Positions 1-45,169 of a stretch of 64,000 bases of DNA are shown piece after piece (the stretch's first letter is position 1; every line of letters begins with the position of its first letter). The notes under the pieces are model-generated. The model made no database searches. It worked only from the letters and a program-made list of their open reading frames with translations, and was not told the DNA's origin. The stretch lies in the IMG/VR virus record IMGVR_UViG_3300045988_108826. The stretch is one strand, 5' to 3'. Source of the stretch: a virus. The position numbers were made by a program, and so were the translations under genes.

Positions 1-489
1 GAAAACACTAAGCATACAATAAAAGAAAAAGGACATCCGATGAAGGGTAGAAAGCATACAGAAGAGAGCATAAATAAAATGCGTAAAAATACCCAAAAAA
101 AGTTCGGTAAAGAAAACCCAAATTATGGATGGAAACCATCAAAGGAATTGATTGATAGGCTTTCTGAATTGTCAAAAATGAGAGTTGGAAATAAGAACCC
201 GTTTTTTGGTAAGCACCATACCGAGGAAAATAAACAAAAATATCGAAATTTGTTTGGAAAGAAAGTTGTTCAAATAGATAAATTCACAGATAAGGTAATA
301 TCAATTTATGATTCAGCAAATGAAGCCGCTATTTCTGTATGTGGTAATATAAAAGCTGCGTCAGACATAGGAAAGTGCTGCAATGGATACATAAATAAAA
401 AAGGCGTAAAAATAAAAACAGCTCATGGGTATAAATGGCAATGGTATCAACAATTCGAAGAAAAGGTTCATCGACTATCGAAAGCATAG
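1..489 (+). CDS. Homing endonuclease, C-terminal part (I-TevI/Seg-like linker and DNA-binding domains); N-terminus lies outside the window
   Basis: The frame is open from nt 1 (ENTKHTIKEKGHP precedes the tracked Met). It has NUMOD3-type repeats (GRKHTEESINKM, GWKPSKELIDRL, GKHHTEENKQKY) and an IENR1/NUMOD1-like tail ending AHGYKWQW. Confidence 0.8.
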   Translation, partial: ENTKHTIKEKGHPMKGRKHTEESINKMRKNTQKKFGKENPNYGWKPSKELIDRLSELSKMRVGNKNPFFGKHHTEENKQKYRNLFGKKVVQIDKFTDKVISIYDSANEAAISVCGNIKAASDIGKCCNGYINKKGVKIKTAHGYKWQWYQQFEEKVHRLSKA

Positions 490-632
490 GTTAATCCGAA
501 TAAGCGAGTAGAGTACATTCAAGTGAATGGAAATGGGGAGCACCAAAAAGGTGAAGATATAGTCAAATCTGTATAGAAATATACAGCTGCTTTTAGGCGG
601 GTTAGAATTAACGAATCTAACTGAATATTATG
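1..632 (+). mobile_element. Group I intron (3' part; 5' part lies outside the window) carrying a homing-endonuclease ORF
   Basis: The S-element AAGATATAGTC (554-564) pairs with GACTAT (473-478) to form P7. Hairpins follow at 569-586 and 602-620. The terminal CTGAATATTATG (621-632) parallels the T4 td intron 3' end as I recall it. Confidence 0.65.
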
Positions 633-1064
633 GCTGCTGCTGGTATTGCTTCTTTCTTGGGTATCAACGGTGGTAATATCTTAGGTCGCAGCGGTTGGGG
701 ATGTAACGGTGAAGGTTGTTGCTCTGACAACACAATGGTAAACCGTTACGAACTGAACATGGCACGTGAAGCAGATTCTCTGAAATCAGAAAATGCTTTG
801 CTGCGTTCTCAGGTTTACGTTGACCAAAAGCTGGTTGATGTTGTGAACGACTACACATCTAAGATTAACGCTTTGGGTGTAGAAGTACGTGCCAACAAGG
901 ATGCTCAGACTGCCGTTAACTTGCAGCAAACAGCTTTGAACGCTACTCAGACCGCTACAATTAGCGCAATGAGTGCTCAGATTGCTCAGTTGCAGTCTTT
1001 GTCACAGTTTATTGTACCAAGCAATAAGGTTTGCGACACTTGCTGCTGCGGTTGTGCTCAGTAA
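633..1064 (+). CDS. Predicted 3' exon: Gly-rich N-terminus, coiled coil, C-terminal Cys cluster (tracked as 630..1064)
   Basis: The frame continues in phase after the predicted omega-G at 632. A 60-nt line counted here (661-720) is 48% G+C, and codon use looks like a highly expressed gene. Motifs GCNGEGCC and CDTCCCGC are present. Confidence 0.6.
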   Translation, partial: AAAGIASFLGINGGNILGRSGWGCNGEGCCSDNTMVNRYELNMAREADSLKSENALLRSQVYVDQKLVDVVNDYTSKINALGVEVRANKDAQTAVNLQQTALNATQTATISAMSAQIAQLQSLSQFIVPSNKVCDTCCCGCAQ

Positions 1065-1073
1065 GGATTTTTT

Positions 1074-1100
1074 GGGGCGGTGAAATATCTGCCCCTTAAA
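1074..1100 (+). terminator. Intrinsic terminator
   Basis: Hairpin GGGGCGG-tgaaatat-CTGCCCC, followed by a T-rich run. Confidence 0.55.
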
Positions 1101-1120
1101 CTTTTAAAACACTTTTATAT

Positions 1121-1576
1121 ATGCAATATACAAATTCACAGATTTTAGCAGCAGTATTAAACAAGTGGCTACAGCCAGTGGTGTTACAACTATCTCAGGC
1201 TAAGATGGCTTCTTTCCCTTTTGTTCAGGCAATAGAAAACAAGGTTAAATCCATAGGTTTCGTAAGTCCGAACTGGTCATTGACTCAGGAATTATCTCCA
1301 ATGATTGAACCTATTACAAACAGCATCGTACAGCCTATGCTGAACAAGTACCTGTCAAATGTTCCTGATGAAGCCATTCCTGCTATGGCACACGGAATTA
1401 TAGACAAGGCTTTGGCTAACGGGAAATTGGAACTTATGGAAGGTAAGTTGATATTTGACAAGGATGATTTGACTGAATTAAAGAAGCTGCTTGACTACAA
1501 CCTTCCTTTGGGACAGACGGAGGGATATAGTGTCCGTACTGCTCCCTCCGAAACAAGTACAGAAAAAGTATTATAA
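1121..1576 (+). CDS. Hypothetical protein (possible virion protein)
   Basis: A 151-aa ORF in the GC-richer block, with no competing frame. Confidence 0.7.
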   Translation: MQYTNSQILAAVLNKWLQPVVLQLSQAKMASFPFVQAIENKVKSIGFVSPNWSLTQELSPMIEPITNSIVQPMLNKYLSNVPDEAIPAMAHGIIDKALANGKLELMEGKLIFDKDDLTELKKLLDYNLPLGQTEGYSVRTAPSETSTEKVL

Positions 1577-1644
1577 GATATAATCGAGCCAACGCCCTCG
1601 GCACGATTGTAGAATATTAATAGGGGGCTAATTTTTGTATAACT

Positions 1645-2076
1645 ATGAATTGCAACATGATTCAACCTGCGGTAATTACCGCTACGCTTGCGGCTGGCTC
1701 TACTACATCGCCTTACTATGCACAAGTAAACATCTCACAGCGTTTGTGCTACAAGACATGTGCTGATGTAACTCCAGTATTCAATCCTCAGTTCTCGGTG
1801 GTTTCTTTGGATTCGGTAGGCACTAATCAGTATGTAGCTACTATCCATGTAGAAGGTATCATTTCTTATGTACCTTGTGGCGGTGGATGCTGCACTAAGC
1901 AACAGCCGTTATCGCAGAACTTCACAATTCCTATCTACTCTACAACCGCACTGACAGGCGCAACCGTAGCAGCAGGTAGCGTGGTAAATTCTGTAGCTGC
2001 TTCTGCTTGTCAGAATTGTAGCCGTGCATTTGTCAGCGAAACACCGCTTACAATCACAACAGCCACAGCAGGATAA
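1645..2076 (+). CDS. Hypothetical Thr/Ala/Ser-rich protein with Cys clusters (CGGGCC)
   Basis: A 143-aa ORF with the same composition as its neighbours. Confidence 0.7.
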   Translation: MNCNMIQPAVITATLAAGSTTSPYYAQVNISQRLCYKTCADVTPVFNPQFSVVSLDSVGTNQYVATIHVEGIISYVPCGGGCCTKQQPLSQNFTIPIYSTTALTGATVAAGSVVNSVAASACQNCSRAFVSETPLTITTATAG

Positions 2077-2354
2077 TGGGGTGGTTATTGATTGCTCTAA
2101 TCTGTATGGTGGTGGGTGTGACAGCCCATCACCTCGGATTGACGGAAGAAGCGGCAAAGATGGCGAGCAAGATAGCGAAGTGTCCTAAATGCTGTTCGTT
2201 TTGGCTCTCTCTGCTTGTACTATTATACATTGGCTGCAACCCGTTTGTTTCTGTTGCACTTTCTTTGTTTGTCGCTTATCTTTCTTATTATTTCGGATTG
2301 ATATTGATTCTATTACAAAAACTATATAATTGGTTATGGCAAAAAGTAAATTGA
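2076..2354 (+). CDS. Small membrane protein (2-3 TM segments, CPKCC motif)
   Basis: Hydrophobic segments are present, and the start overlaps the upstream stop (ATAATG). Confidence 0.7.
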   Translation: MGWLLIALICMVVGVTAHHLGLTEEAAKMASKIAKCPKCCSFWLSLLVLLYIGCNPFVSVALSLFVAYLSYYFGLILILLQKLYNWLWQKVN

Positions 2355-2486
2355 AAACAGAAACAGAAGCAAATGTTTCGACAGAAAACGTAAAGCAGGT
2401 GTTTGTACCTATAAACAAGAAATACAAGCCTGTTCCTAAGTTTAACGGGAAATGCCCTAATTGTTAAAAACTAAAACTTATATATT

Positions 2487-3035
2487 ATGATGACAAAAGA
2501 ACAAATGATGGATGAATATGAAATGTATTCTCACAAAATAGTAAAATCTAAGGATGTAAAACACATGGAAGTTCTAGCTGAGGTTTGCGAATGGCTTTTC
2601 TGTCAAGTTGCTACTAAAATGCCTGATGTAGCTGAAAGCGCACTCGCCCGTTTAGCTGCAACAGAATGGAATAATTACCTATCTCCAACCGAAGCCAAAA
2701 ACATCGGCATGAGAATCGTAAATCAGGACGGTATAAAAGGCTTTCATTGGACTTATGACGTGTTTACAAAGGCAGTGGAAAGTCTTGGAGGTGTTGTAGA
2801 AGAAAAGCCTTACTACAACTCATACGCATTATATGTGACTGCGTGCACAATCTATTCAGACCACGCTTTGAGCATTGCTATGGATTTGGGATATAAAGAG
2901 CCGAAAGAAGTGCCTAACGAGAAAATGGCTTTGTCATGCTATCGAAAGGCAGTTGAGAAACTGAAAGACATTGACGGTGGGTTTCAAGTCAGAAAATATT
3001 TCAAAGGAAAGATGTACGCAGATTCACCAATGTGA
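2487..3035 (+). CDS. Hypothetical protein
   Basis: A 182-aa ORF. Confidence 0.7.
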   Translation: MMTKEQMMDEYEMYSHKIVKSKDVKHMEVLAEVCEWLFCQVATKMPDVAESALARLAATEWNNYLSPTEAKNIGMRIVNQDGIKGFHWTYDVFTKAVESLGGVVEEKPYYNSYALYVTACTIYSDHALSIAMDLGYKEPKEVPNEKMALSCYRKAVEKLKDIDGGFQVRKYFKGKMYADSPM

Positions 3036-3130
3036 TTTGAAGCGTATAGAAGATAAGTTAGACTTGATACTTGACAAACTTAACAGTATGAATGGAATAA
3101 AAGGCTTCGGAGTAAACGTATTGGCTAACA

Positions 3131-3337
3131 TTGTCGGAAATAGAATTGACGGACGATAAAAAGGTTATTATTATGTGCAACAATACATCATGCCCTGTAT
3201 ATCGTGAAGAACACGATGAAAGGCTAAACATAGAGGAACGTATCAGAGAACTTTTAGGTGAACTTACAAGAGAGCTACCTATACAAGAGTTCATAATGAT
3301 TAAGAAAGAAATTGAATACTACATTGACAAGTTATAA
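3131..3337 (+). CDS. Small hypothetical protein (ATG start more likely at 3173)
   Basis: The tracked start is TTG. The internal start MCNNTSCPVY... gives 54 aa. Confidence 0.5.
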   Translation: MSEIELTDDKKVIIMCNNTSCPVYREEHDERLNIEERIRELLGELTRELPIQEFIMIKKEIEYYIDKL

Positions 3338-3343
3338 ATAGAA

Positions 3344-3369
3344 AAGGCTACCCGATTGAGAGTAGCCTT
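3344..3369. terminator. Bidirectional hairpin between convergent blocks
   Basis: Hairpin AAGGCTAC-ccgattgaga-GTAGCCTT. Confidence 0.6.
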
Positions 3370-3387
3370 ACTTGTGTTAGTTATGGG

Positions 3388-3600
3388 TTATAATTTAAGA
3401 ATATTCTTAAATGCCCTTGCTGATTTTTTGTTTTGTACAATCAGACTTTCCAGCTTTGAATTTTCTTCGTTAAGGCGGCTTATGGTCTGTGTATTATCGT
3501 TGATTTTATCATTAATATCCTTGTTTAAAGTTTCCAAATCTTCTTTTGCTTTTTGAAATACGCTAAGGATATTGCTTCTTCTTTCTTCAAAATTGCTCAT
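3388..3600 (-). CDS. Small coiled-coil protein
   Basis: A 70-aa ORF that overlaps the upstream gene end. Confidence 0.6.
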   Translation of the reverse strand: MSNFEERRSNILSVFQKAKEDLETLNKDINDKINDNTQTISRLNEENSKLESLIVQNKKSARAFKNILKL

Positions 3601-4051
3601 GGTTTTTTATTTTATAGTTATGCGTTTCGTAAGTAATTGTAATTTCTTCACCTCTTTGGTTTGCAGGAATAAGATACTTTTCCATTAAGCTCATAAACGT
3701 TTGAGTTGAATTAGTAACTTGTCCTTTAACCTTATTTTGACCAACGAGCAAACAACCGCTTGTGTCCTCTGCTGTGTTTCCGACATGAATCAAAACGCCT
3801 TCATAATTAGGCACATCAATCAATCGTGGCAGCTTACCACCATAAGGTTTAGCCCAACTTCTATCCTTAAACTTTGGAGAAACGACATCCATTGTGATTT
3901 TATATGTCCCGCAAGGAATAGCCGTTTTGCCATAAATCTTAGTTTCTCTTACTGCATCTTCCAAAGTGTCACACACGTATTCACCGTTTACATATAAACG
4001 ACCAATAGTGTAATCACTTTTTAACGCTACTCTTTTTACTTTTAATTCCAT
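3587..4051 (-). CDS. DUF5675-like protein
   Basis: Motifs TIGRLYVNGEYVCDTLED, AIPCGTYKI and GVLIHVGNTAEDTSGCLLVG match my memory of DUF5675. Confidence 0.55.
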   Translation of the reverse strand: MELKVKRVALKSDYTIGRLYVNGEYVCDTLEDAVRETKIYGKTAIPCGTYKITMDVVSPKFKDRSWAKPYGGKLPRLIDVPNYEGVLIHVGNTAEDTSGCLLVGQNKVKGQVTNSTQTFMSLMEKYLIPANQRGEEITITYETHNYKIKNHEQF

Positions 4052-4064
4052 ATCTGTTTAATGA

Positions 4065-4589
4065 TTATTTACCTGTACTTCCATAACCACCTTCACCACG
4101 TTCTGTTTCTGACAATTCATCTACTTCTTCAAATTCGATTCTTGGGTAAGGCAATATTATCATTTGTGCTATACGCTCTCCAACTTCATAAAGCAATGGG
4201 TTTGGCGCATCTTTTCTATTTTCCCCCGAAAGGCATACAAAATCATAGTTATCTCTCACTCTTCCTATGCCATTTTCTTCCGTATCGTACTCAAAATCAC
4301 AGAAGCAAGCGGTAGGTTTGAATTTAGCTGTTACTTCCCCCCTAAAACCACTATCCAGCACACCGACTGCATTTGTCAAAGATAAATCTTTTTTACATAT
4401 ACTGCTTCTTGGAAAAATAAGACCTACATACCCTTCAGGAATTTCAAAAGCTAAACCAGTGTGATACACAATGTTCCCATATTCATCGTATTCGCATGAC
4501 ACCGCAGTTAAATCTAGTCCAGCATCTCCTTGCTTTGCATATTTAGGGATAACTGCATCTTTATGTAGTTTCTTAATATTTACTTTCAT
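4065..4589 (-). CDS. dut: dUTP diphosphatase (trimeric type) with a large internal insertion
   Basis: Motifs AGLDL, PRSS, GVLDSGFRGEV, GERIAQ and RGEGGYGSTG are present. Confidence 0.9.
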   Translation of the reverse strand: MKVNIKKLHKDAVIPKYAKQGDAGLDLTAVSCEYDEYGNIVYHTGLAFEIPEGYVGLIFPRSSICKKDLSLTNAVGVLDSGFRGEVTAKFKPTACFCDFEYDTEENGIGRVRDNYDFVCLSGENRKDAPNPLLYEVGERIAQMIILPYPRIEFEEVDELSETERGEGGYGSTGK

Positions 4590-4852
4590 TTCAATTCCTC
4601 CTTCAATTCGTTAGCTGTTCTTATTCCTGCAATACGTTTGATTACTCTGTTTTTCTCAACAACAAGGATAGTAGGCACGTTTCTTACCTGATATTTGCTT
4701 GACATATCTACTCCCCAATCGGATTCACAGTCCACATCAGTAAACTTCATGTTTTCAGACTTCATTTCCTTTGCTACTTCACCGAACACCTGTGCCATCT
4801 TAGGGCAGCTTTTACACCAATAGGCGTGGAAGAACATAACTTCTTTTTTCAT
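4586..4852 (-). CDS. Thioredoxin-like protein
   Basis: Contains a WCKSC (CxxC) active site in an 88-aa thioredoxin-sized protein. Confidence 0.8.
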   Translation of the reverse strand: MKKEVMFFHAYWCKSCPKMAQVFGEVAKEMKSENMKFTDVDCESDWGVDMSSKYQVRNVPTILVVEKNRVIKRIAGIRTANELKEELK

Positions 4853-4863
4853 CTTTTGTAAAT

Positions 4864-5715
4864 TTATTGTTTATAAAAATCCTTTGCCTTAAACAAGGCA
4901 TTGTTAATTATATCTCTGTTTGTTAAAGTCTTGTCAAGGTCACGATATGCTTTCATTACATTGTCGCATTTGTTCAGGTCAAGTTTGCCGCATTTTCTTG
5001 AAACCCAATTACTGAAATTCTCTGCCACACGAAGCATATCAAGCATCTTATACTGACGCAAATGTACGGAATCTTTTTTGAATTTCAAACATTCCTGCAC
5101 TCTATTTTCTACGTTTTTAACAGAATACCCTACTATCGTCCGTACTATCTCGGCTAAAGCTATAAAGTATGAATTTTCTGCACCTATACTGTCTAAAGCT
5201 GACTTCATTTCGTTTATGAACGTATCAAGTTTAGGCTGCACGCTTTCATCCATGTATGAGTTATATTCTGCCAAAAAATCCATATTTTCAGGAAGAATAC
5301 CTGATATAAGACTTTCGTACAGTTTTTGTCTTTTCTCCAAAGCACCGAATATCTTCTGTGTTTCCTTGTCCTGATTCTTGATAAAGTCTTTCATCTGTAT
5401 GATACATGCACAAGCTAGGTCGTTTACATACATGATGTTGTAGATAGAAGTAGTGACTACATAGTTTCCGTCTATCGGGCGTACTTTATAAAACTCACAC
5501 TTGCGGAAAGTGTCTACATAGTGGAATTTTACTTCGGGTGTATCTGCTGACTTCGATTTATAGCTGTTGTATTTAAAGCAATTTTCGCAGTTCTTGCACT
5601 GCTCGTATGTTTTACTTGATTTCTTGTAAAACTGTCCGCTACACACGCTTCTGACATCTAAATTAGCTTCTCTGTAAACGGCTTCCTTTGCTTCTCTTTG
5701 TTTTTCGTTGCTCAT
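4864..5715 (-). CDS. Hypothetical protein
   Basis: A 283-aa ORF with N-terminal CKNCENC. Confidence 0.7.
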   Translation of the reverse strand: MSNEKQREAKEAVYREANLDVRSVCSGQFYKKSSKTYEQCKNCENCFKYNSYKSKSADTPEVKFHYVDTFRKCEFYKVRPIDGNYVVTTSIYNIMYVNDLACACIIQMKDFIKNQDKETQKIFGALEKRQKLYESLISGILPENMDFLAEYNSYMDESVQPKLDTFINEMKSALDSIGAENSYFIALAEIVRTIVGYSVKNVENRVQECLKFKKDSVHLRQYKMLDMLRVAENFSNWVSRKCGKLDLNKCDNVMKAYRDLDKTLTNRDIINNALFKAKDFYKQ

Positions 5716-6170
5716 AACTCTTTTATTTCTAAATCAGACTTTGTGATTAATCTTATCCCGTTCTGTAATTCGTGGAGGTATTGGAAGTCGAAACCACCGA
5801 TTGATTCATATCTATCGTTATCTATGTGGCAATACCAATCTCTATAAATAGAATTTGTTTCTCCTTTTCTAACAGCTATAAAACAATTATTCACAAATGT
5901 TTCATAATCATCGGCTGGGATATATGCTTCTTTGCATTCTCTTCTAAAGCCTATTTTCTTTAAGAGTTTATCATTTACCTCTATCGGCATCATATCTTTA
6001 TCTTTGCACTCGAATACATCACCCTCATTGCCTTCAAAATCCAAATAACAATAATCCTCACCAATATTTACAACTCTCATTGGGAATTTACTTCTTTCGC
6101 TTTCGTAAACCCAATTCCCTATCATTAAATCTTTATAGTGTATCATAGCTTTATTATTTATCTTCAACAA
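5712..6170 (-). CDS. Hypothetical protein
   Basis: A 152-aa ORF with a 4-nt overlap to its neighbour. Confidence 0.7.
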   Translation of the reverse strand: MLKINNKAMIHYKDLMIGNWVYESERSKFPMRVVNIGEDYCYLDFEGNEGDVFECKDKDMMPIEVNDKLLKKIGFRRECKEAYIPADDYETFVNNCFIAVRKGETNSIYRDWYCHIDNDRYESIGGFDFQYLHELQNGIRLITKSDLEIKEL

Positions 6171-8514: not shown

Positions 8515-9351
8515 TCAAAATTCAGGTTCGTTCTTCTTTTCTTCGGATGGCTGAATTACCTCGCCAGTTGATAAGTCAATCGTTTCTCCATTGTTTACTG
8601 ATATTTCTTCGTATTCAGCATCCATAGGTTCTTGAGCCTTTGTTTCTTCTTCACCTTTTACTTCTGAGTTAGTTGCCGCATAAGCCAAATCAGGGGTTGA
8701 GTTGATAATCATGTTGCAACCCGAATTGATTATCGTTTTCATTACCATTTTTTCATCGAATTGTTTTGCGGTAGTCTGTTCTCTGCTTGAAGATTTTGAC
8801 CAAGCGGTCAGAATCATGCGCTTACTCATTATATACAAATCTTGACCACCATCGGCAGTTGGTAGATACATATAAGCTCCAACAAATCCCTTATCCAAGT
8901 TTTCCAAGCATTGTGTATGTTTAACAAGTCTCTTGCAACCGTTTTTAGGGTCTATTTCGTAAATAAACTCATCACCTTCACGTATTACAACTGGGTGTGG
9001 GTCAAAGTTAGGGTAGATACGTTTAACTTGAAGCACTTTGCCAAAGTAAGATTCATGCAAGCATAGTTTATCTCCACGCACAATAAAATAACAAGTCTTG
9101 CGAGAAGCATCTAAACCTTTTACGCTCATCTCAAAGAGTGCAGAAGCAATACTATTCTGTGTACACGCTTCTAATGCAGGTTTGCCATTCTTGTCTTTCA
9201 AATCCTGCAATACAAGCATACTTGCTTTTATAGCGTTTACATATTGATAGTCAGCGGGCATTTTAAATCCTACCTCACACAGACTATTTACTCTTGCAAT
9301 AACACTGTCACCTACATTTGTTTTAACTGTTGCTACTTCTTTTGTTGCCAT
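8515..9351 (-). CDS. recT: RecT-family single-strand annealing protein
   Basis: The size, layout and sequence resemble RecT as I recall it. It lies next to nuclease, SSB and resolvase genes. Confidence 0.65.
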   Translation of the reverse strand: MATKEVATVKTNVGDSVIARVNSLCEVGFKMPADYQYVNAIKASMLVLQDLKDKNGKPALEACTQNSIASALFEMSVKGLDASRKTCYFIVRGDKLCLHESYFGKVLQVKRIYPNFDPHPVVIREGDEFIYEIDPKNGCKRLVKHTQCLENLDKGFVGAYMYLPTADGGQDLYIMSKRMILTAWSKSSSREQTTAKQFDEKMVMKTIINSGCNMIINSTPDLAYAATNSEVKGEEETKAQEPMDAEYEEISVNNGETIDLSTGEVIQPSEEKKNEPEF

Positions 9352-9356
9352 AATAC

Positions 9357-10139
9357 TTAATTATTTAATGATTGTTCTTTAAATTTCCAAATAAATCCTC
9401 CTGCATGATTTCTATCACCACGACAGCAAGCTGTTATCTTGTTGATGTTTGTTACTCTTTGAGCCTCCGATGCAGAATGATATTCTCTAATAAAATTACC
9501 ATTAATATCAAACTGAATAACAGGTTTACATAATCTCGTATGTCTCATTTTGTTAATAAGTTCATCCGATTGTTTGTTCCTTAAAAATCTTTCACGATAA
9601 GATTTATCACTCCAAAGTTTTTTCATTTTGTCAGAGTTCTTTTTTATATTCTCTTCTTTGGAATAATACTCCTTCATTATCTTGCTTATTTTACTTCTAA
9701 ATTCTTTTGTTGTATGAACTTTTCGAGATGATTCCCTTTTGTTTTCGATTGCCAACGGAAATGTATCATTCTCATAATGCGTGCATCTGCGGATATTCTC
9801 GACCCGATTGTCATGCCTAATGCCATTAATATGGTCAATAAAATCCTTTCCATCCTCTTTAGGAAGAAAAGATTCAGCCATAAGTCTATGCACTAAAAAT
9901 CTTTTTAGTTTCTTATCCTTGTGCAGATTTACACAAACGTAGCCACCTTGATTAAGGTTAGTTTTCATAATTTTCTCATGAGATGCGTACTGGTTATGAT
10001 TTCCTCCTTTATTTTTAGGCAAAGATTTCACCCTCCCAAGATTTGATACCATATAACTACCTTCGTAGCCTACTACATCTCTCCATTCCTCGTTAGGAAG
10101 GTTTTCTAAACTTAGATTTTTGTAAATTTCTGTTTCCAT
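9357..10139 (-). CDS. HNH homing endonuclease (NUMOD4 + HNH_3 + IENR1-like)
   Basis: Contains WRDVVGYEGSYMVSNLGRVKSL, IDHINGIRHDNRVENIRRCT, and the C-terminal EAQRVTNINKITACCRGDRNHAGGFIWKF. Confidence 0.85.
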   Translation of the reverse strand: METEIYKNLSLENLPNEEWRDVVGYEGSYMVSNLGRVKSLPKNKGGNHNQYASHEKIMKTNLNQGGYVCVNLHKDKKLKRFLVHRLMAESFLPKEDGKDFIDHINGIRHDNRVENIRRCTHYENDTFPLAIENKRESSRKVHTTKEFRSKISKIMKEYYSKEENIKKNSDKMKKLWSDKSYRERFLRNKQSDELINKMRHTRLCKPVIQFDINGNFIREYHSASEAQRVTNINKITACCRGDRNHAGGFIWKFKEQSLNN

Positions 10140-15301: not shown

Positions 15302-16414
15302 TTAATTTTTAAGTTTTCTGTTTAATATTTTATCTATTTCATCTATCTGGTCGTACTTAATTTCTATCAGTTTTATTTTATGTTCTTTACAATATTGACG
15401 CAGCCTTTTGTCTCTATCTACTTGAATAGCAAAATCATCTTCAGTACGATGAAAGAAAGGTATTTTTTTATAGTGTTGCACTCCGTTAAATTCTATAATA
15501 ACATTTAGTCGTGGCAAATAAAAATCAGCCTTAATATTATTCCTCGAAAACATTTGTGGGTCAATATTTATGCTATATTGTCTTATATATTCTATTCCCT
15601 TTAAAGTAAGAAAATATTCTATTTTATTCTCTCCCAATGATGTCTTACATTTCGGACACCCCTGTCCATTCAGATGATTATTTGGTGACTGCCAAAACTC
15701 GTCATGCTCAGGACACACTATGCATACTTTCTTTTTTGCACTTATATATTCCACTCTGGTGTAATCATATTTGCATCCGTGTATTAATTTTGACATTTCA
15801 ATAAAATATTCTGTATTTTTAGTTTGTTTTTCTGCCATTGATTTAAATCCGCAAATAGGACAACCTTTCCCTTGTAAGTGATTGTCAGGAGTTTGCCAAA
15901 ATTCGCCATGTATTGGACATAAAATACAAACTTTTGTATTCATGTCTTTGTACTTCACTTTATCATAGATATATTTATCACCATGAACTTTAACTGCTCG
16001 TGCTATGAAAATTTCAGTGGTTATCTTAATTTTACCCTTACAGGCAGGACATTCTTGACCACTTAAATGGTTGCTTGGTGCTTGCCAGAACTCTCCGTGT
16101 ATCGGGCATATTATACAAACTTTAGTTTTATTATCCTTATAATCAACTTTACTATAATCGTATTTCCCATTGTGGATTTTTCTTGCACATTCTATAAATG
16201 ATGTTGTATCTTTTTTTATTTTTCCACCACAATGTGGACATCCACTCCCTCTTAAATGATTAATAGGAGTCTGCCAAAAACTACCATGTTCTTTACATAT
16301 AATTTCAACCTTTGTCGTGCATTTTTCATACACAACTTTAGTATAATCATACCTATCCCCGTGAACTTCTTTTGCTCTCGCAATAAATTCTTCTGTTGTT
16401 AATCTTTTACTCAT
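15302..16414 (-). CDS. Free-standing homing-endonuclease-like protein: 4 Zn-ribbon repeats plus a Vsr/DUF559-like PD-(D/E)xK domain
   Basis: The repeat HGxKYDYxKVxYxxxxxKVxIxCxxHGxFWQxPxxHLxGxGCPxC occurs four times. It is followed by ADFYLPRLNVIIEFNGVQHY. Confidence 0.75.
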   Translation of the reverse strand: MSKRLTTEEFIARAKEVHGDRYDYTKVVYEKCTTKVEIICKEHGSFWQTPINHLRGSGCPHCGGKIKKDTTSFIECARKIHNGKYDYSKVDYKDNKTKVCIICPIHGEFWQAPSNHLSGQECPACKGKIKITTEIFIARAVKVHGDKYIYDKVKYKDMNTKVCILCPIHGEFWQTPDNHLQGKGCPICGFKSMAEKQTKNTEYFIEMSKLIHGCKYDYTRVEYISAKKKVCIVCPEHDEFWQSPNNHLNGQGCPKCKTSLGENKIEYFLTLKGIEYIRQYSINIDPQMFSRNNIKADFYLPRLNVIIEFNGVQHYKKIPFFHRTEDDFAIQVDRDKRLRQYCKEHKIKLIEIKYDQIDEIDKILNRKLKN

Positions 16415-16551: not shown

Positions 16552-18495
16552 TTATTTTATATCTACAACAAAATCTTCATCTGTCACAATCATTTTTATT
16601 AACTGATTATTTATTGAAGGTATATTGCTTTCATTGATAAGTTCGCTGTCGTCAATAAACAAAGGTAGATTGATATCATAGAACTTCTGCAATGCTAAAG
16701 CTAAGTCAATACCAATCAACACCTTACTTGCATGGTTTGTAACACTTGCACTTACGCCCATATTGTCTGTGACCTTACAAGTATCAATGACATTTCCCGA
16801 TTTATTTGTTTCAGTCATTTCTACGTGTAGATAATCAAACTTACTATTTACTCTATAAGAAATAATCGAAGCCTTTTCACGCTCATATCTTTCAACCGCA
16901 TTTAGCTTTCCTTCAAGTAAGGCTAATTCAGAAGCACTATCTCTAAGAGATGATTGAAATTCTTTAATCTTATCTATCTGTTTGTCATATTCATCTTTTA
17001 ATCCAAGTTTTTTTGAATTGGCTTCAATATCATTCAAAAGCTCCCTTTTCATATTTTGCAATGCGCTTGTATCTTCACTTGGAATATCCGTTAAATTTGC
17101 CTCATGGTATGCTATAATTCCCAGTTTTTCTTTTCCTTCCTTAGTATCACGATATTTCACAAAATTATTTCGCAAATTATCCAACTCTAAAACAAGCAGT
17201 TCCTTACTCTGCAAAGGTTTTTCTTCATACCCTTTATCTATGATAGCTTGCAATTCTTCTATCTCGGACTTTACTTGCACGATTTTTTCGTTGTTTGATT
17301 TACCTGTTGCCACTATTGATTTGTGTTTTGCTTCGCGCTGTTCAAAGAATCTCTGTTTTGCTTCTTCAAGTTTTTCTCCTTGTAACGGTTGCCCGCAATA
17401 GCTGCAAACTTCACCCTCAAACTGCATTGACTTGACATTTTCGTTTTCTTTGAGAAGAACTTTCCTACATTCCTCGTAAGCTCTCAGTCTTTCTTTCGCT
17501 AATTTTATCTCTTTTTCAGCGTCTTCTAAAACTTGTTTATTTTTTCTATTATCACGTTCTATCTGTGCATTATTACTATCCACATCAGCTATCTGTGTTT
17601 TTATTTTATTGGCTTCGTATATTGGCTTTGTATTGTATTTGTTTTCAGCTTCCGCGTATTCTTGTTTCAACTTGTTTATCTCAGCCAATTCAGCATCTCT
17701 TTTTTTAATATATACTTTTGCTTGCTCGTTACTTCCCAATATTAATTTATCTATACTCTCAATTTGTTTCTTTGCATCTTCTATTTCCTCTCTAATTACA
17801 TCAAGCCCGCTTATGTCAGGTAACGATGATTGAAGAGCATTAATAGTAATTGGTAAACTTTCAATATTCTGTTTAATAGGTTTCATTTGACCTTTAATAC
17901 TTTCCTTGATTTTTTCGGGAGGATATTTATCAAGTTCGTTTTTAATGATTGAATAGTCTCCTTCAAAATCATCATCTTTAATTTCTCCTACTAAATGTTC
18001 AAAAATACCTCTAAGGTATCTCCAATCCATACCTAAGAAATAATTAATATTTAGCATTAATTTTAATTTAGGGAAAGGCGCAAATGTTTCTTCTATAAAC
18101 GATTTATAATCTCCTGCACTTCTCTCAATGCAGTCTATATAAAACTTGTAATCGTCAGTAGCTTTCTTTTCGTATTCCTCACGACCTTTCTTTCTCGTCC
18201 AACCTTGCTTTGCGGTCTTTTTCAGCGTGTATTCTACTCCGTCAATATCCAACACGGCTTCGGCAGATGCAAGTTTTGAGTTTTCGTAAGTAAGCGGCAA
18301 GGTATCATCGAACAATTTGTAGTTGATTCTGTCTTGTTCGTCTGCACCAGTAAGCAACCAAAGCCACGCATTGAAGCAGCTTGACTTACCTGATTTGTTT
18401 CTTCCTTTGATTTCTGTATTGTGACCGAAGTTTATAACTTTGTTCTGTCCTCGCCAATCCTGCAAGGTGAGTTTTTTAAGAGTTATTGTTTTCAT
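16552..18495 (-). CDS. SbcC/Rad50-like (T4 gp46-like) recombination ATPase
   Basis: Has an N-terminal Walker A (GRNKSGKSS), a long coiled coil with a central CSYC zinc-hook-like CxxC, and a C-terminal LPLFIDDSE. Confidence 0.8.
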   Translation of the reverse strand: MKTITLKKLTLQDWRGQNKVINFGHNTEIKGRNKSGKSSCFNAWLWLLTGADEQDRINYKLFDDTLPLTYENSKLASAEAVLDIDGVEYTLKKTAKQGWTRKKGREEYEKKATDDYKFYIDCIERSAGDYKSFIEETFAPFPKLKLMLNINYFLGMDWRYLRGIFEHLVGEIKDDDFEGDYSIIKNELDKYPPEKIKESIKGQMKPIKQNIESLPITINALQSSLPDISGLDVIREEIEDAKKQIESIDKLILGSNEQAKVYIKKRDAELAEINKLKQEYAEAENKYNTKPIYEANKIKTQIADVDSNNAQIERDNRKNKQVLEDAEKEIKLAKERLRAYEECRKVLLKENENVKSMQFEGEVCSYCGQPLQGEKLEEAKQRFFEQREAKHKSIVATGKSNNEKIVQVKSEIEELQAIIDKGYEEKPLQSKELLVLELDNLRNNFVKYRDTKEGKEKLGIIAYHEANLTDIPSEDTSALQNMKRELLNDIEANSKKLGLKDEYDKQIDKIKEFQSSLRDSASELALLEGKLNAVERYEREKASIISYRVNSKFDYLHVEMTETNKSGNVIDTCKVTDNMGVSASVTNHASKVLIGIDLALALQKFYDINLPLFIDDSELINESNIPSINNQLIKMIVTDEDFVVDIK

Positions 18496-27636: not shown

Positions 27637-27873
27637 CTATTTATTTAATTTGTTCAAACATTCTACAGCATCCCAACTTTCAAGCATAAAATCACAACCG
27701 TTCCATGTGTTAGAATTAATATCCTTGTACAAATTACTACATTTCACACGAACAACACAACCAGCGTTGAATACTGATACATGAAAGTAAATGTACTCTT
27801 TACTTGTATTCTTAATTCTCTTAATCTGCTTTTCTGAAAGTTCAGAAAGAACTTCTTTTACCATATCTTTCAT
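27637..27873 (-). CDS. Small hypothetical protein
   Basis: A 78-aa ORF. Confidence 0.6.
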   Translation of the reverse strand: MKDMVKEVLSELSEKQIKRIKNTSKEYIYFHVSVFNAGCVVRVKCSNLYKDINSNTWNGCDFMLESWDAVECLNKLNK

Positions 27874-28015
27874 AAGACTAATATTTAATTGTGAATACTC
27901 TTTTGTTTACTCTGCATTTTCACGGGCTTGTAACCGCCTAATAGGCTGCATTAAACAACAACAAAGAATTAATATAAATATCATACTACATTAACTCTTT
28001 GTTGCACAATATATA

Positions 28016-28219
28016 TTAATCCGTTATTTTCTCAAAGAAAATAGGATTTTCTCGCGTAACGAAATTATTTGTAATTAATATTTCGCTTTCTTCTGTTTCG
28101 GTTCTTTCCTTAACATAGACGTTTGTAGCTATATTGTTAGAATAGTTATTATTTCCGAATAGTATAATAGCGTCATCGTCTACATTTTCAAGAATCTCAA
28201 TTAATTCTCTTTTTGTCAT
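28016..28219 (-). CDS. Small hypothetical protein (first gene of the leftward block)
   Basis: A 67-aa ORF. Confidence 0.6.
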   Translation of the reverse strand: MTKRELIEILENVDDDAIILFGNNNYSNNIATNVYVKERTETEESEILITNNFVTRENPIFFEKITD

Positions 28220-45095: not shown

Positions 45096-45169
45096 GGGCA
45101 AAATGGGTGAGTGATTTAGCCAACACTCTGCAAAAGTGTTTTACAGCGGTTTGAATCCGCTTTTGCCCT
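45096..45169 (+). tRNA. tRNA-Cys: tRNA-Cys (anticodon GCA), 74 nt, with some non-canonical positions
   Basis: Acceptor stem GGGCAAA/TTTGCCC; anticodon arm ACACT-CTGCAAA-AGTGT; T arm AGCGG-TTTGAAT-CCGCT; discriminator U73. Against it, position 8 is A and the D-stem has one mismatch. A19/U56 may covary. Confidence 0.65.

Follow-up and report, generated by a model that had tools for sequence, protein, structure and literature searches.

A candidate group I intron with td-like architecture and an endonuclease gene in a small conserved gene of a human gut phage

The interrupted gene at the left end of the window

The stretch of DNA analyzed here, referred to as the window, comprises 64,000 nucleotides of the viral record IMGVR_UViG_3300045988_108826, which derives from an uncultivated phage of the human gut with a genome of about 82 kb. 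At the left end of the window, three elements follow one another on the plus strand: the last part of an I-TevI-family GIY-YIG/NUMOD3 endonuclease gene (positions 1–489, codons 116–277 plus the stop codon at 487–489), a series of hairpins that extends to position 632, and an open reading frame (ORF) of 144 codons that opens with the ATG at 630 and runs to 1064. The first-pass annotation had proposed that these elements represent the end of a group I intron resembling that of the td gene of phage T4, with G632 as its last base, the ATG at 630 as intron sequence, and 633–1064 as a 3' exon whose 5' exon lies to the left of the window. The motifs on which this proposal was built are all present, namely the "S" element AAGATATAGTC (554–564), its complement GACTAT within the last codons of the endonuclease ORF (473–478), the hairpins CTGTATA-gaaa-TATACAG (569–586) and TTAGA-attaacgaa-TCTAA (602–620), and the terminal sequence CTGAATATTATG (621–632). 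The evidence described below indicates that positions 1–632 are very probably the 3' part of a 1110-nucleotide group I intron that ends at G632 and is bounded by the splice sites given here.

The left part of the intron lies outside the window and was taken from ten human gut phage contigs of about 80 kb, each of which matches window positions 1–632 at 100%. Window position 1 corresponds to position 9372 of one of these contigs, L001, and the preceding stretch of L001 (8819–9371, plus strand) contains a 75-nucleotide exon 1 and the first 478 nucleotides of the intron. Window positions 1–632 (632 nucleotides) are thereby intron nucleotides 479–1110, present as the same sequence in the 10 contigs and delimited by intron-less alleles and by the fold. 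The Rfam group I intron model RF00028 matched the window at 552–584 (model positions 219–251, 27.8 bits; E = 8.5e-5 when 1.2 kb is searched, or 0.0045 for the whole window) and also matched L001 at 8929–9018 (model positions 60–138, 27.7 bits), the latter fragment corresponding to P4–P6. The two fragments occur in the right order and orientation, with E about 1e-4 each. They were seen only in a permissive E-value mode, since scanning the window at the gathering threshold of the model (50 bits) reported nothing, and the whole-window scan detected no further split introns. On its own, the 11-mer AAGATATAGTC is not significant (one exact match, and five matches with one mismatch versus 1.9 expected). 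A megablast search of window positions 1–6000 against GenBank phages returned a single match of 85 nucleotides, to the intron of Staphylococcus phage StB12, and the phage itself is not in GenBank.

Upstream of the intron, L001 contains a 26-codon ORF (8819–8899) encoding MQIKTMDGQSYNVTGAGQGNFNTVGK followed by a stop, the 25th codon of which ends the sequence GTGGGT. The sequence GCTCAC, located 13 bases past GTGGGT, can pair with it, with a U.G wobble at what would be the splice site. When exon 1 is joined to window base 633, a 168-amino acid (aa) protein reading ...NTVG/AAAGIA... results (here and below, the slash within a sequence marks the insertion site). The insertion is exactly 1110 nucleotides long and falls on a codon boundary (phase 0), between codons 25 and 26 of this 168-codon gene. 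Using the 168-aa protein as a query, we retrieved 818 homologs, most of which are 160–175 aa long and cover 96%–100% of the query. These homologs read across the junction without insertion or deletion (for example, P0001 with ...GNFNTVG AAAGIASFLG...) and are mostly colinear with exon 1 plus exon 2, the latter comprising 143 codons and the stop codon at 633–1064 (plus strand). The empty site was also identified at the DNA level in two phage contigs with the same synteny, reading ...AACACGGTCGGA/GCTGCTGCTGGT... in L016 and ...AACACAGTAGGC/GCTGCTGCC... in L011; the border between exons 1 and 2 in L016 is likewise written ...TTCAACACGGTCGGA/GCTGCTGCTGGT... or, as also quoted, ...GGTCGGA/GCTGCTGCTGGT.... 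From the protein data alone, a cut at GGGU/...AUG/ is indistinguishable from one placed one base further left, and the intron end is fixed at G632 because, in group I introns, a U.G pair precedes the 5' splice site and the last base is a G. The 3' tail with this terminal G (621–632, plus strand) is consistent with the intron-less alleles, and the T4 td intron likewise ends ...AACAUAAUG.

The intron-less homologs that run through the junction thus bear out the end at G632, the intronic ATG, and the 3' exon that the first-pass annotation had proposed. It had also suggested a search with RF00028, which matches both halves, each below the gathering score, and an inspection of the upstream sequence for the remaining helices and an in-phase 5' exon, where P1, P3–P6, and the 75-nucleotide exon were found. 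The AUG at 630–632 is predicted to be intron sequence and not the start codon of the mature mRNA, and the deposited 144-aa product would be a mis-call for a true product of 168 aa. Because the intron interrupts the gene, databases would list this protein 24 residues too short. The 144-aa product is present in NCBI nr as a hypothetical protein (DAW10776.1 and DAY73222.1) and has been called on at least 73 contigs and in 152 collection blocks; many human gut metagenome contigs of about 80 kb encode exactly this product.

The 168-aa product appears to be a conserved phage protein with a predicted coiled coil. Its AlphaFold2 (AF2) model, with a mean predicted local distance difference test (pLDDT) score of 65, consists mostly of one long helix (residues 63–152), and contains in addition a short N-terminal hairpin, a helix at residues 18–33, and a disordered stretch rich in Gly and Cys. 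Searches of the interrupted gene against Pfam and PHROGs gave nothing above threshold, a BFVD fold search with the AF2 model gave no match at E ≤ 0.001, and a tblastn search of an intron-less homolog against GenBank phages gave no match. As had been noticed beforehand, the interrupted gene sits in a GC-richer block, the GC content rising from 0.31–0.35 over the endonuclease ORF to 0.43–0.46 over 633–1064, and this may point to high expression of the gene. Just 3' of the exon 2 stop codon (window 1065–1100) lies a GC-rich inverted repeat, GGGGCGG-tgaaatat-CTGCCCC, a terminator-like stem that lacks a T-run and was not called by the consensus scan. On the other side, about 60 nucleotides immediately 5' of the exon 1 ATG (L001 8760–8818, ending ...gtcaaggcgcaaagacaaaagagcgcaagataaattttaaaattt) are recognizably conserved and also found upstream of the gene in L016 and L011, in flanking DNA that is otherwise 56%–63% identical between intron-bearing and intron-less phages. 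This block could be a promoter or leader element.

Predicted fold and covariation of the intron RNA

The helices of the intron were written out on a 300-nucleotide construct from which the ORF was deleted, and all 72 pairs of P1, P3–P9.2, and P10 are standard in the lineage of the window. P1 is formed by GUGGGU and GCUCAC (6 pairs, the last of which is the U.G at the 5' splice site) and is invariant in all copies. P10 joins the exon strand GCUGCU (633–638) to the guide GGCAGU (intron nucleotides 7–12) by 6 standard pairs. The 3' strand of P3 (GGGGAG, 535–540) pairs with CUCCCU (intron nucleotides 26–31), that of P6 (GGU, 465–467) with GCC (intron nucleotides 75–77), and that of P6a (UUCGAAGAA, 454–462) with UUCUUUGAA (intron nucleotides 81–89, left of the window), the last helix comprising 9 standard pairs. 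The 5' strand of P7 (GACUAU, 473–478), located in the final codons of the endonuclease ORF, pairs with 559–564, and the 3' strand (AUAGUC) together with J8/7 (AAGAU) constitutes the conserved "S" element at 554–564, as placed by the RF00028 alignment. The remaining hairpins are P7.2 (CAUUC-aagu-GAAUG, 516–529), P8 (CACC-aaaaa-GGUG, 541–553, from the fold and the covariation alignments), P9 with its GAAA loop (569–586, from Rfam and the fold), P9.1 (CUGCU-uuua-GGCGG, 587–600), and P9.2 (UUAGA-auuaacgaa-UCUAA, 602–620), which aligns with P9.2 of td. All window coordinates of these helices refer to the plus strand. A P2 hairpin is absent, because only the six bases of J1/3 (UUAAAA) separate the 3' strand of P1 from P3. 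A vestigial P7.1 (UAGG-uuaau-CCGA, 487–499, plus strand) that contains an A.G mismatch and holds the ORF stop codon was assigned from its position, which is homologous to that of the P7.1 hairpins in StB12, L029, and L033, a weak assignment to which covariation adds no support. An extended P7.1 pairing (GCAU..AUAAGC) was rejected, since the change of U979 to G in both L013 and L015 would break it.

Covariation was analyzed at two levels. The within-lineage set comprised six distinct copies of the intron from three diverged lineages (L001-type, L013, and L015). In this set, 98.4% of the cells are paired, versus 33%–49% when the partners were slid by 1–3 columns. Both partners are altered in four of the pairs, and 2 of 500 shuffles do as well as this. 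Double changes in L015 include A-U to C-G in P10, which affects both the guide and the exon, and U-A to C-G in the closing pair of P6a; the same lineage has C-G to U-A in P9.1 and A-U to U-A in P9.2. Because the core helices never vary within their own lineage, they were checked on a family set of 15 related introns that includes T4 td, StB12, two introns of SapYZU04, and several IMG/VR introns sharing a 27-nucleotide P5 block. In the family set, pairing holds in 96.7% of the cells, and both partners are altered in 20 pairs; none of 500 shuffles matched any of the observed measures, and the three rows of the window intron fit every helix. Five of the 6 pairs of P3 change on both sides with 100% of the cells paired, and P7.2 shows compensatory changes across the family (for instance, U-A to C-G in 5 sequences). 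The P6 pair at columns 61/93 of alignment A4, invariant in its own lineages, appears as CG in 7, GC in 5, and UA in 2 members of the family. P7 is also invariant in its own lineages; across all 15 family members, 5 of its 6 pairs show no variation, and three relatives leave the sixth unpaired.

The RNA core is 90%–97% identical between lineages whose exons are 67%–78% identical, which suggests that the ribozyme is the constrained part of the locus. Recent lateral transfer was considered and set aside as an explanation of this difference, because, in a comparison of intron and exon conservation, transfer and strong constraint on the RNA are indistinguishable. A 27-nucleotide block, CTCCTAACGTAAAGACGAGGACAATCA, which extends from P5 to the 3' strand of P4, is identical in introns of at least a dozen contexts on 23 viral contigs (L023–L045, from IMG/VR), and StB12 is among the carriers, with hosts unrelated to this gut phage lineage. 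In one of these contigs, L025 (IMGVR_UViG_3300039167_000005), the position of P8 holds a second copy of the P5 hairpin (TCCTAACGTAAAGACGAGGA), as if duplicated, about 125–150 nucleotides 3' of the P5 block starting at 3317.

From this anatomy we infer catalysis, splicing in vivo, and homing in the following manner. The gene and its intron would be transcribed as a single pre-mRNA, in which the last six exon 1 bases, GUGGGU, would form P1 with the internal guide GCUCAC and place the U.G wobble at the splice site. A guanosine bound in P7 would attack after the U of this wobble, the adjoining guide bases GGCAGU would form P10 with the first exon 2 bases, GCUGCU, and the freed 3' OH of exon 1 would attack after the terminal G632, so that the exons would be ligated in phase 0 (...N-T-V-G/A-A-A-G-I-A...). 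In a mixed infection, the endonuclease would cut intron-less alleles near the insertion site, with the empty sites of L016 and L011 as candidate substrates, and repair would copy the intron with a short flanking exon stretch into the cut allele (homing). Several features of the locus are consistent with such use. Exon 1 is an intact 25-codon ORF resembling the family consensus in the three intron-bearing lineages, and one would not expect this integrity in three diverged lineages unless exon 1 were still joined to exon 2 and translated. P1 and P10, which have no role besides splicing, have been kept, P10 by compensation. All intron-bearing alleles share the same 12 nucleotides 5' of the intron (AACACAGTGGGT) and intron-less alleles differ there, a pattern that either the requirement for P1 or co-conversion during homing would yield. 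The truncated start MAAAG... occurs in only about 4% of the homolog clusters, and this sporadic spread on different exon backgrounds is typical of a mobile intron.

The intron-encoded endonuclease and competing explanations

The full endonuclease ORF (277 aa, 834 nucleotides; L001 9027–9860) lies inside the P6a loop and starts at intron nucleotide 134. The protein matches the NCBIfam family TIGR01453 ("group I intron endonuclease") with 92.5 bits (cutoff 56.05, E = 3.6e-26), a family on which I-TevI itself scores 192 bits, and it also matches PHROG 314 (homing endonuclease). The NUMOD3 domain that the first-pass annotation had read in the ORF was recovered by Pfam well above its cutoff (40.4 bits versus 20.4). 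In a pairwise comparison, the endonuclease is colinear with I-TevI, with 27% identity over 224 aa (E = 2e-5). An hhalign comparison of a profile of three endonuclease sequences with I-TevI was also colinear (198 columns), with a weak E-value of 0.008 because the profile is shallow. The alignments with I-TevI keep the motif ..VY..(10).YIG, R25 (R27 in I-TevI), the Glu of EKE (E75), and the Asn of GYN (N90); these Tyr-Tyr-Arg-Glu-Asn positions we take to be the catalytic residues of I-TevI. A phmmer search of the endonuclease against PDB sequences gave no match. Its homologs are labeled "group I intron endonuclease" or "intron associated endonuclease" by the Joint Genome Institute (JGI) and nr.

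The last approximately 35 nucleotides of the ORF overlap P6a', P6', and the 5' strand of P7. At window positions 463–489 and in the corresponding region of L013 and L015, the sequence ...KWQWYQQ is followed, depending on the lineage, by FEEKVHRLSKA, by FEEKGSSTIESIG, or by an immediate stop. Because these protein tails are unrelated while the P6a'-P6'-P7 RNA is conserved, it is the RNA and not the protein that is under selection in the overlap. Moreover, the ORF is broken in 6 of 19 contigs (5 of 11 distinct sequences) with the ribozyme core untouched. In L003 (ERZ28596925 scaffold_163), a deletion of 323 nucleotides in the ORF leaves an intron of 787 nucleotides (about 9216–10002) with an intact core, in which a C-to-U change in P8 retains a G.U pair. 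This deletion is not an assembly error. The other broken ORFs carry changes of +1 or −1 in A-runs. Decay of the ORF with an intact ribozyme is typical of the life cycle of homing endonuclease genes.

Several observations weigh against a splicing and homing intron. Each of the Rfam fragments taken alone falls below the gathering score of 50, because the 834-nucleotide ORF in L6a splits the model; ORF-less relatives with identical blocks score 63–95 bits. P2 is absent and P7.1 has about 3 pairs with a mismatch, and efficient folding of the RNA is an assumption. The match to the Pfam GIY-YIG domain (PF01541) is below the cutoff (14.6 versus 22.6), and faulty assembly, not decay, could account for the single-base differences in A-runs. 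The ligated 168-aa protein is absent from a collection of 15 billion proteins and no spliced transcript was seen. Finally, presence/absence polymorphism within one phage species, which would mark ongoing homing, was not observed; the intron-less alleles nearest to this locus belong to other phage species, in which the flanking DNA is 66%–74% identical.

Free-standing genes for homing endonucleases of the GIY-YIG and HNH types occur commonly in phages, and the window contains at least one other endonuclease ORF without an intron signal (15302–16414, minus strand). Considering also that the P7 11-mer alone is not significant, the endonuclease gene might stand freely between separate ORFs of 26 and 144 codons, surrounded by chance motifs and without any intron. 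This we regard as extremely improbable, since it is already contradicted by the two independent Rfam matches in the correct order and orientation, by the empty sites, relative to which the insertion is nucleotide-precise, and by a full set of helices with covariation; long blocks are, in addition, identical to bona fide full-length introns. If an intron is present, it might have lost the ability to splice, in which case exon 1 would be a relic and function would rest with the 144-aa protein made from the ATG at 630. This is exactly the product that gene callers and nr annotate (73 contigs), its ATG is in frame, the spliced product was found in no collection searched, and the RNA lacks P2 and has a weak P7.1. 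Yet no other part of the locus is as well conserved as the ribozyme core (90%–97% versus 67%–78% for the exons), P1 and P10 are intact, with a double change of guide and exon in P10, and the three diverged lineages all retain the ATG, the frame, and consensus residues of exon 1. Furthermore, the N-terminal 25 residues are present in all intron-less homologs, and the ATG is merely the ...AUG ending that td has too. We consider a dead intron very unlikely, and would place as little weight on the idea that slow or absent splicing yields a 144-aa isoform without the N-terminal 24 residues from the in-frame AUG, the intron acting as an isoform switch. If this were true, splicing efficiency would set the ratio of two forms of the coiled-coil protein during infection.

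A further explanation accepts a functional intron and questions its mobility: the intron may be fixed and vertically inherited, its endonuclease having become inactive or taken on another role, for example that of a maturase-like splicing helper or a regulator, and without ongoing homing. The disruption of the ORF in the contigs counted above would agree with this, as would the result that no intron-less allele turned up within the same phage species. The identity of the ORF between lineages (73%–86%), which is near that of the exons (67%–78%), is compatible with co-divergence. On the other hand, the intact ORFs keep all GIY-YIG hallmark residues and their proteins are 74%–89% identical, the intron is scattered over different exon backgrounds in only about 4% of the homolog clusters, and the upstream 12 nucleotides are identical in the three intron-bearing lineages and differ in intron-less ones, as co-conversion would give. 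A fixed, non-homing intron is in our view a possible but rather unlikely alternative to the intron with a homing endonuclease.

Related introns, phage context, and implications

The intron is similar to phage introns of the IA2 type, among them those of T4 td, Twort, and StB12. The td sequence given in the first-pass annotation matches that of the real T4 td intron, the last 89 nucleotides of which align with the window intron at 69% identity, and the description "td-like" holds for the architecture and for the endonuclease family. It applies only loosely to the sequence, the StB12 type being closer and the window intron having no P2 and just a vestige of P7.1. The T4 td intron is laid out as 132 + 738 + 147 nucleotides and the window intron as 133 + 834 + 143 nucleotides, and the ORF, placed in the P6a loop in both, begins at intron nucleotides 133 and 134, respectively. 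In both introns an in-frame stop codon occurs right after the 5' splice site, P1 ends with a U.G pair (GGGU/), P7 is identical (GACUAU with AUAGUC), and P7.2, P9, P9.1, and P9.2 follow in equal order; the introns end ...AUAAUG in td and ...AUUAUG in the window, and I-TevI and the window endonuclease both belong to TIGR01453. However, BLAST aligns only the last approximately 90 nucleotides of the two introns, and P2 is present in td. The stop codon of I-TevI lies just before P7, whereas the last 35 nucleotides of the window ORF run through P6a', P6', and P7. The interrupted genes also differ, encoding a small coiled-coil protein in the window and thymidylate synthase in td, and the phage that carries the window intron is, unlike T4, a gut phage related to Bacteroides phages.

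The closest sequences among GenBank phages are the ORF-less introns of Staphylococcus phages, that is, the intron in the tail-associated peptidoglycan hydrolase gene of StB12 and those of Twort/K-like phages such as SapYZU04. The StB12 intron is 84% identical to the window intron over two blocks, with an identical 27-nucleotide P5 block and a nearly identical stretch from P7.2 to P3'. These Staphylococcus phage introns give full-length Rfam matches of 93–95 bits, and their core helices covary with those of the window intron. They differ in being about 230–270 nucleotides long without an ORF, in having a P2 hairpin and a long P7.1, and in residing in other host genes of phages that infect Gram-positive hosts. 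Group I introns are also abundant in the Jug phages of gut Bacteroides/Phocaeicola, where metatranscriptome reads support splicing (37 of 76 predicted introns tested) (PMC12880540). The Jug phage introns are mostly about 206 nucleotides long, are found in terL, nrdD, and DNA polymerase genes of jumbo phages of 360–402 kb, and are accompanied by stand-alone endonuclease genes (PMC12880540). They share with the window intron the gut habitat, probably the host phylum, and the property of splitting phage genes; compared by description, the window intron differs in its length of 1.1 kb, in bearing its endonuclease, and in its phage of approximately 82 kb (PMC12880540).

Other genes of the phage include a tape-measure protein gene upstream and genes for RecT, an SbcC-like protein, a primase/helicase, and a tail protein of 2633 aa. 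Among cultured phages, Bacteroides phage C3_41T2LP is the one most closely related to it (45% amino acid identity in the primase/helicase), and a Bacteroidales host is plausible. The ORF at window positions 15302–16414 (minus strand) encodes an HNH-type homing endonuclease of 370 aa (PHROG 559, E = 3e-79) and adjoins the SbcC-like gene (16552–18495, minus strand). Scanning the window with RF00028 detected no group I intron fragment near this ORF, which is probably a free-standing endonuclease gene, and related contigs carry more NUMOD4/NUMOD1 and HNH_3 endonuclease genes near RecT. At 27904–27957 (minus strand), between the minus-strand ORFs 27637–27873 and 28016–28219, the type-P1 twister ribozyme model RF03160 matched with 53.6 bits (gathering score 67.2; E = 3.4e-9 over the whole window). 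The match covers model positions 1–68, with the first internal hairpin (about positions 15–34) replaced by a short loop. A tRNA gene lies at 45097–45168 (plus strand; Rfam, 40.9 bits).

Taken as sequence, the locus has the form of a classical endonuclease-bearing group I intron with td-like architecture, in a new host gene and a new phage lineage, and it leaves the knowledge of group I introns in general unchanged. For annotation, the gene product would be corrected to 168 aa, its conserved N-terminus having been split off by 1.1 kb. Since Rfam scans at the gathering threshold miss ORF-bearing introns, other endonuclease introns are probably hidden in viromes in the same way. For this lineage related to Bacteroides phages, the locus would add a mobile intron of the td/I-TevI style, located in a small and highly conserved gene. 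The intact, frameshifted, and deleted ORFs on three exon backgrounds form a natural series that may be used to study homing and decay in gut phages.

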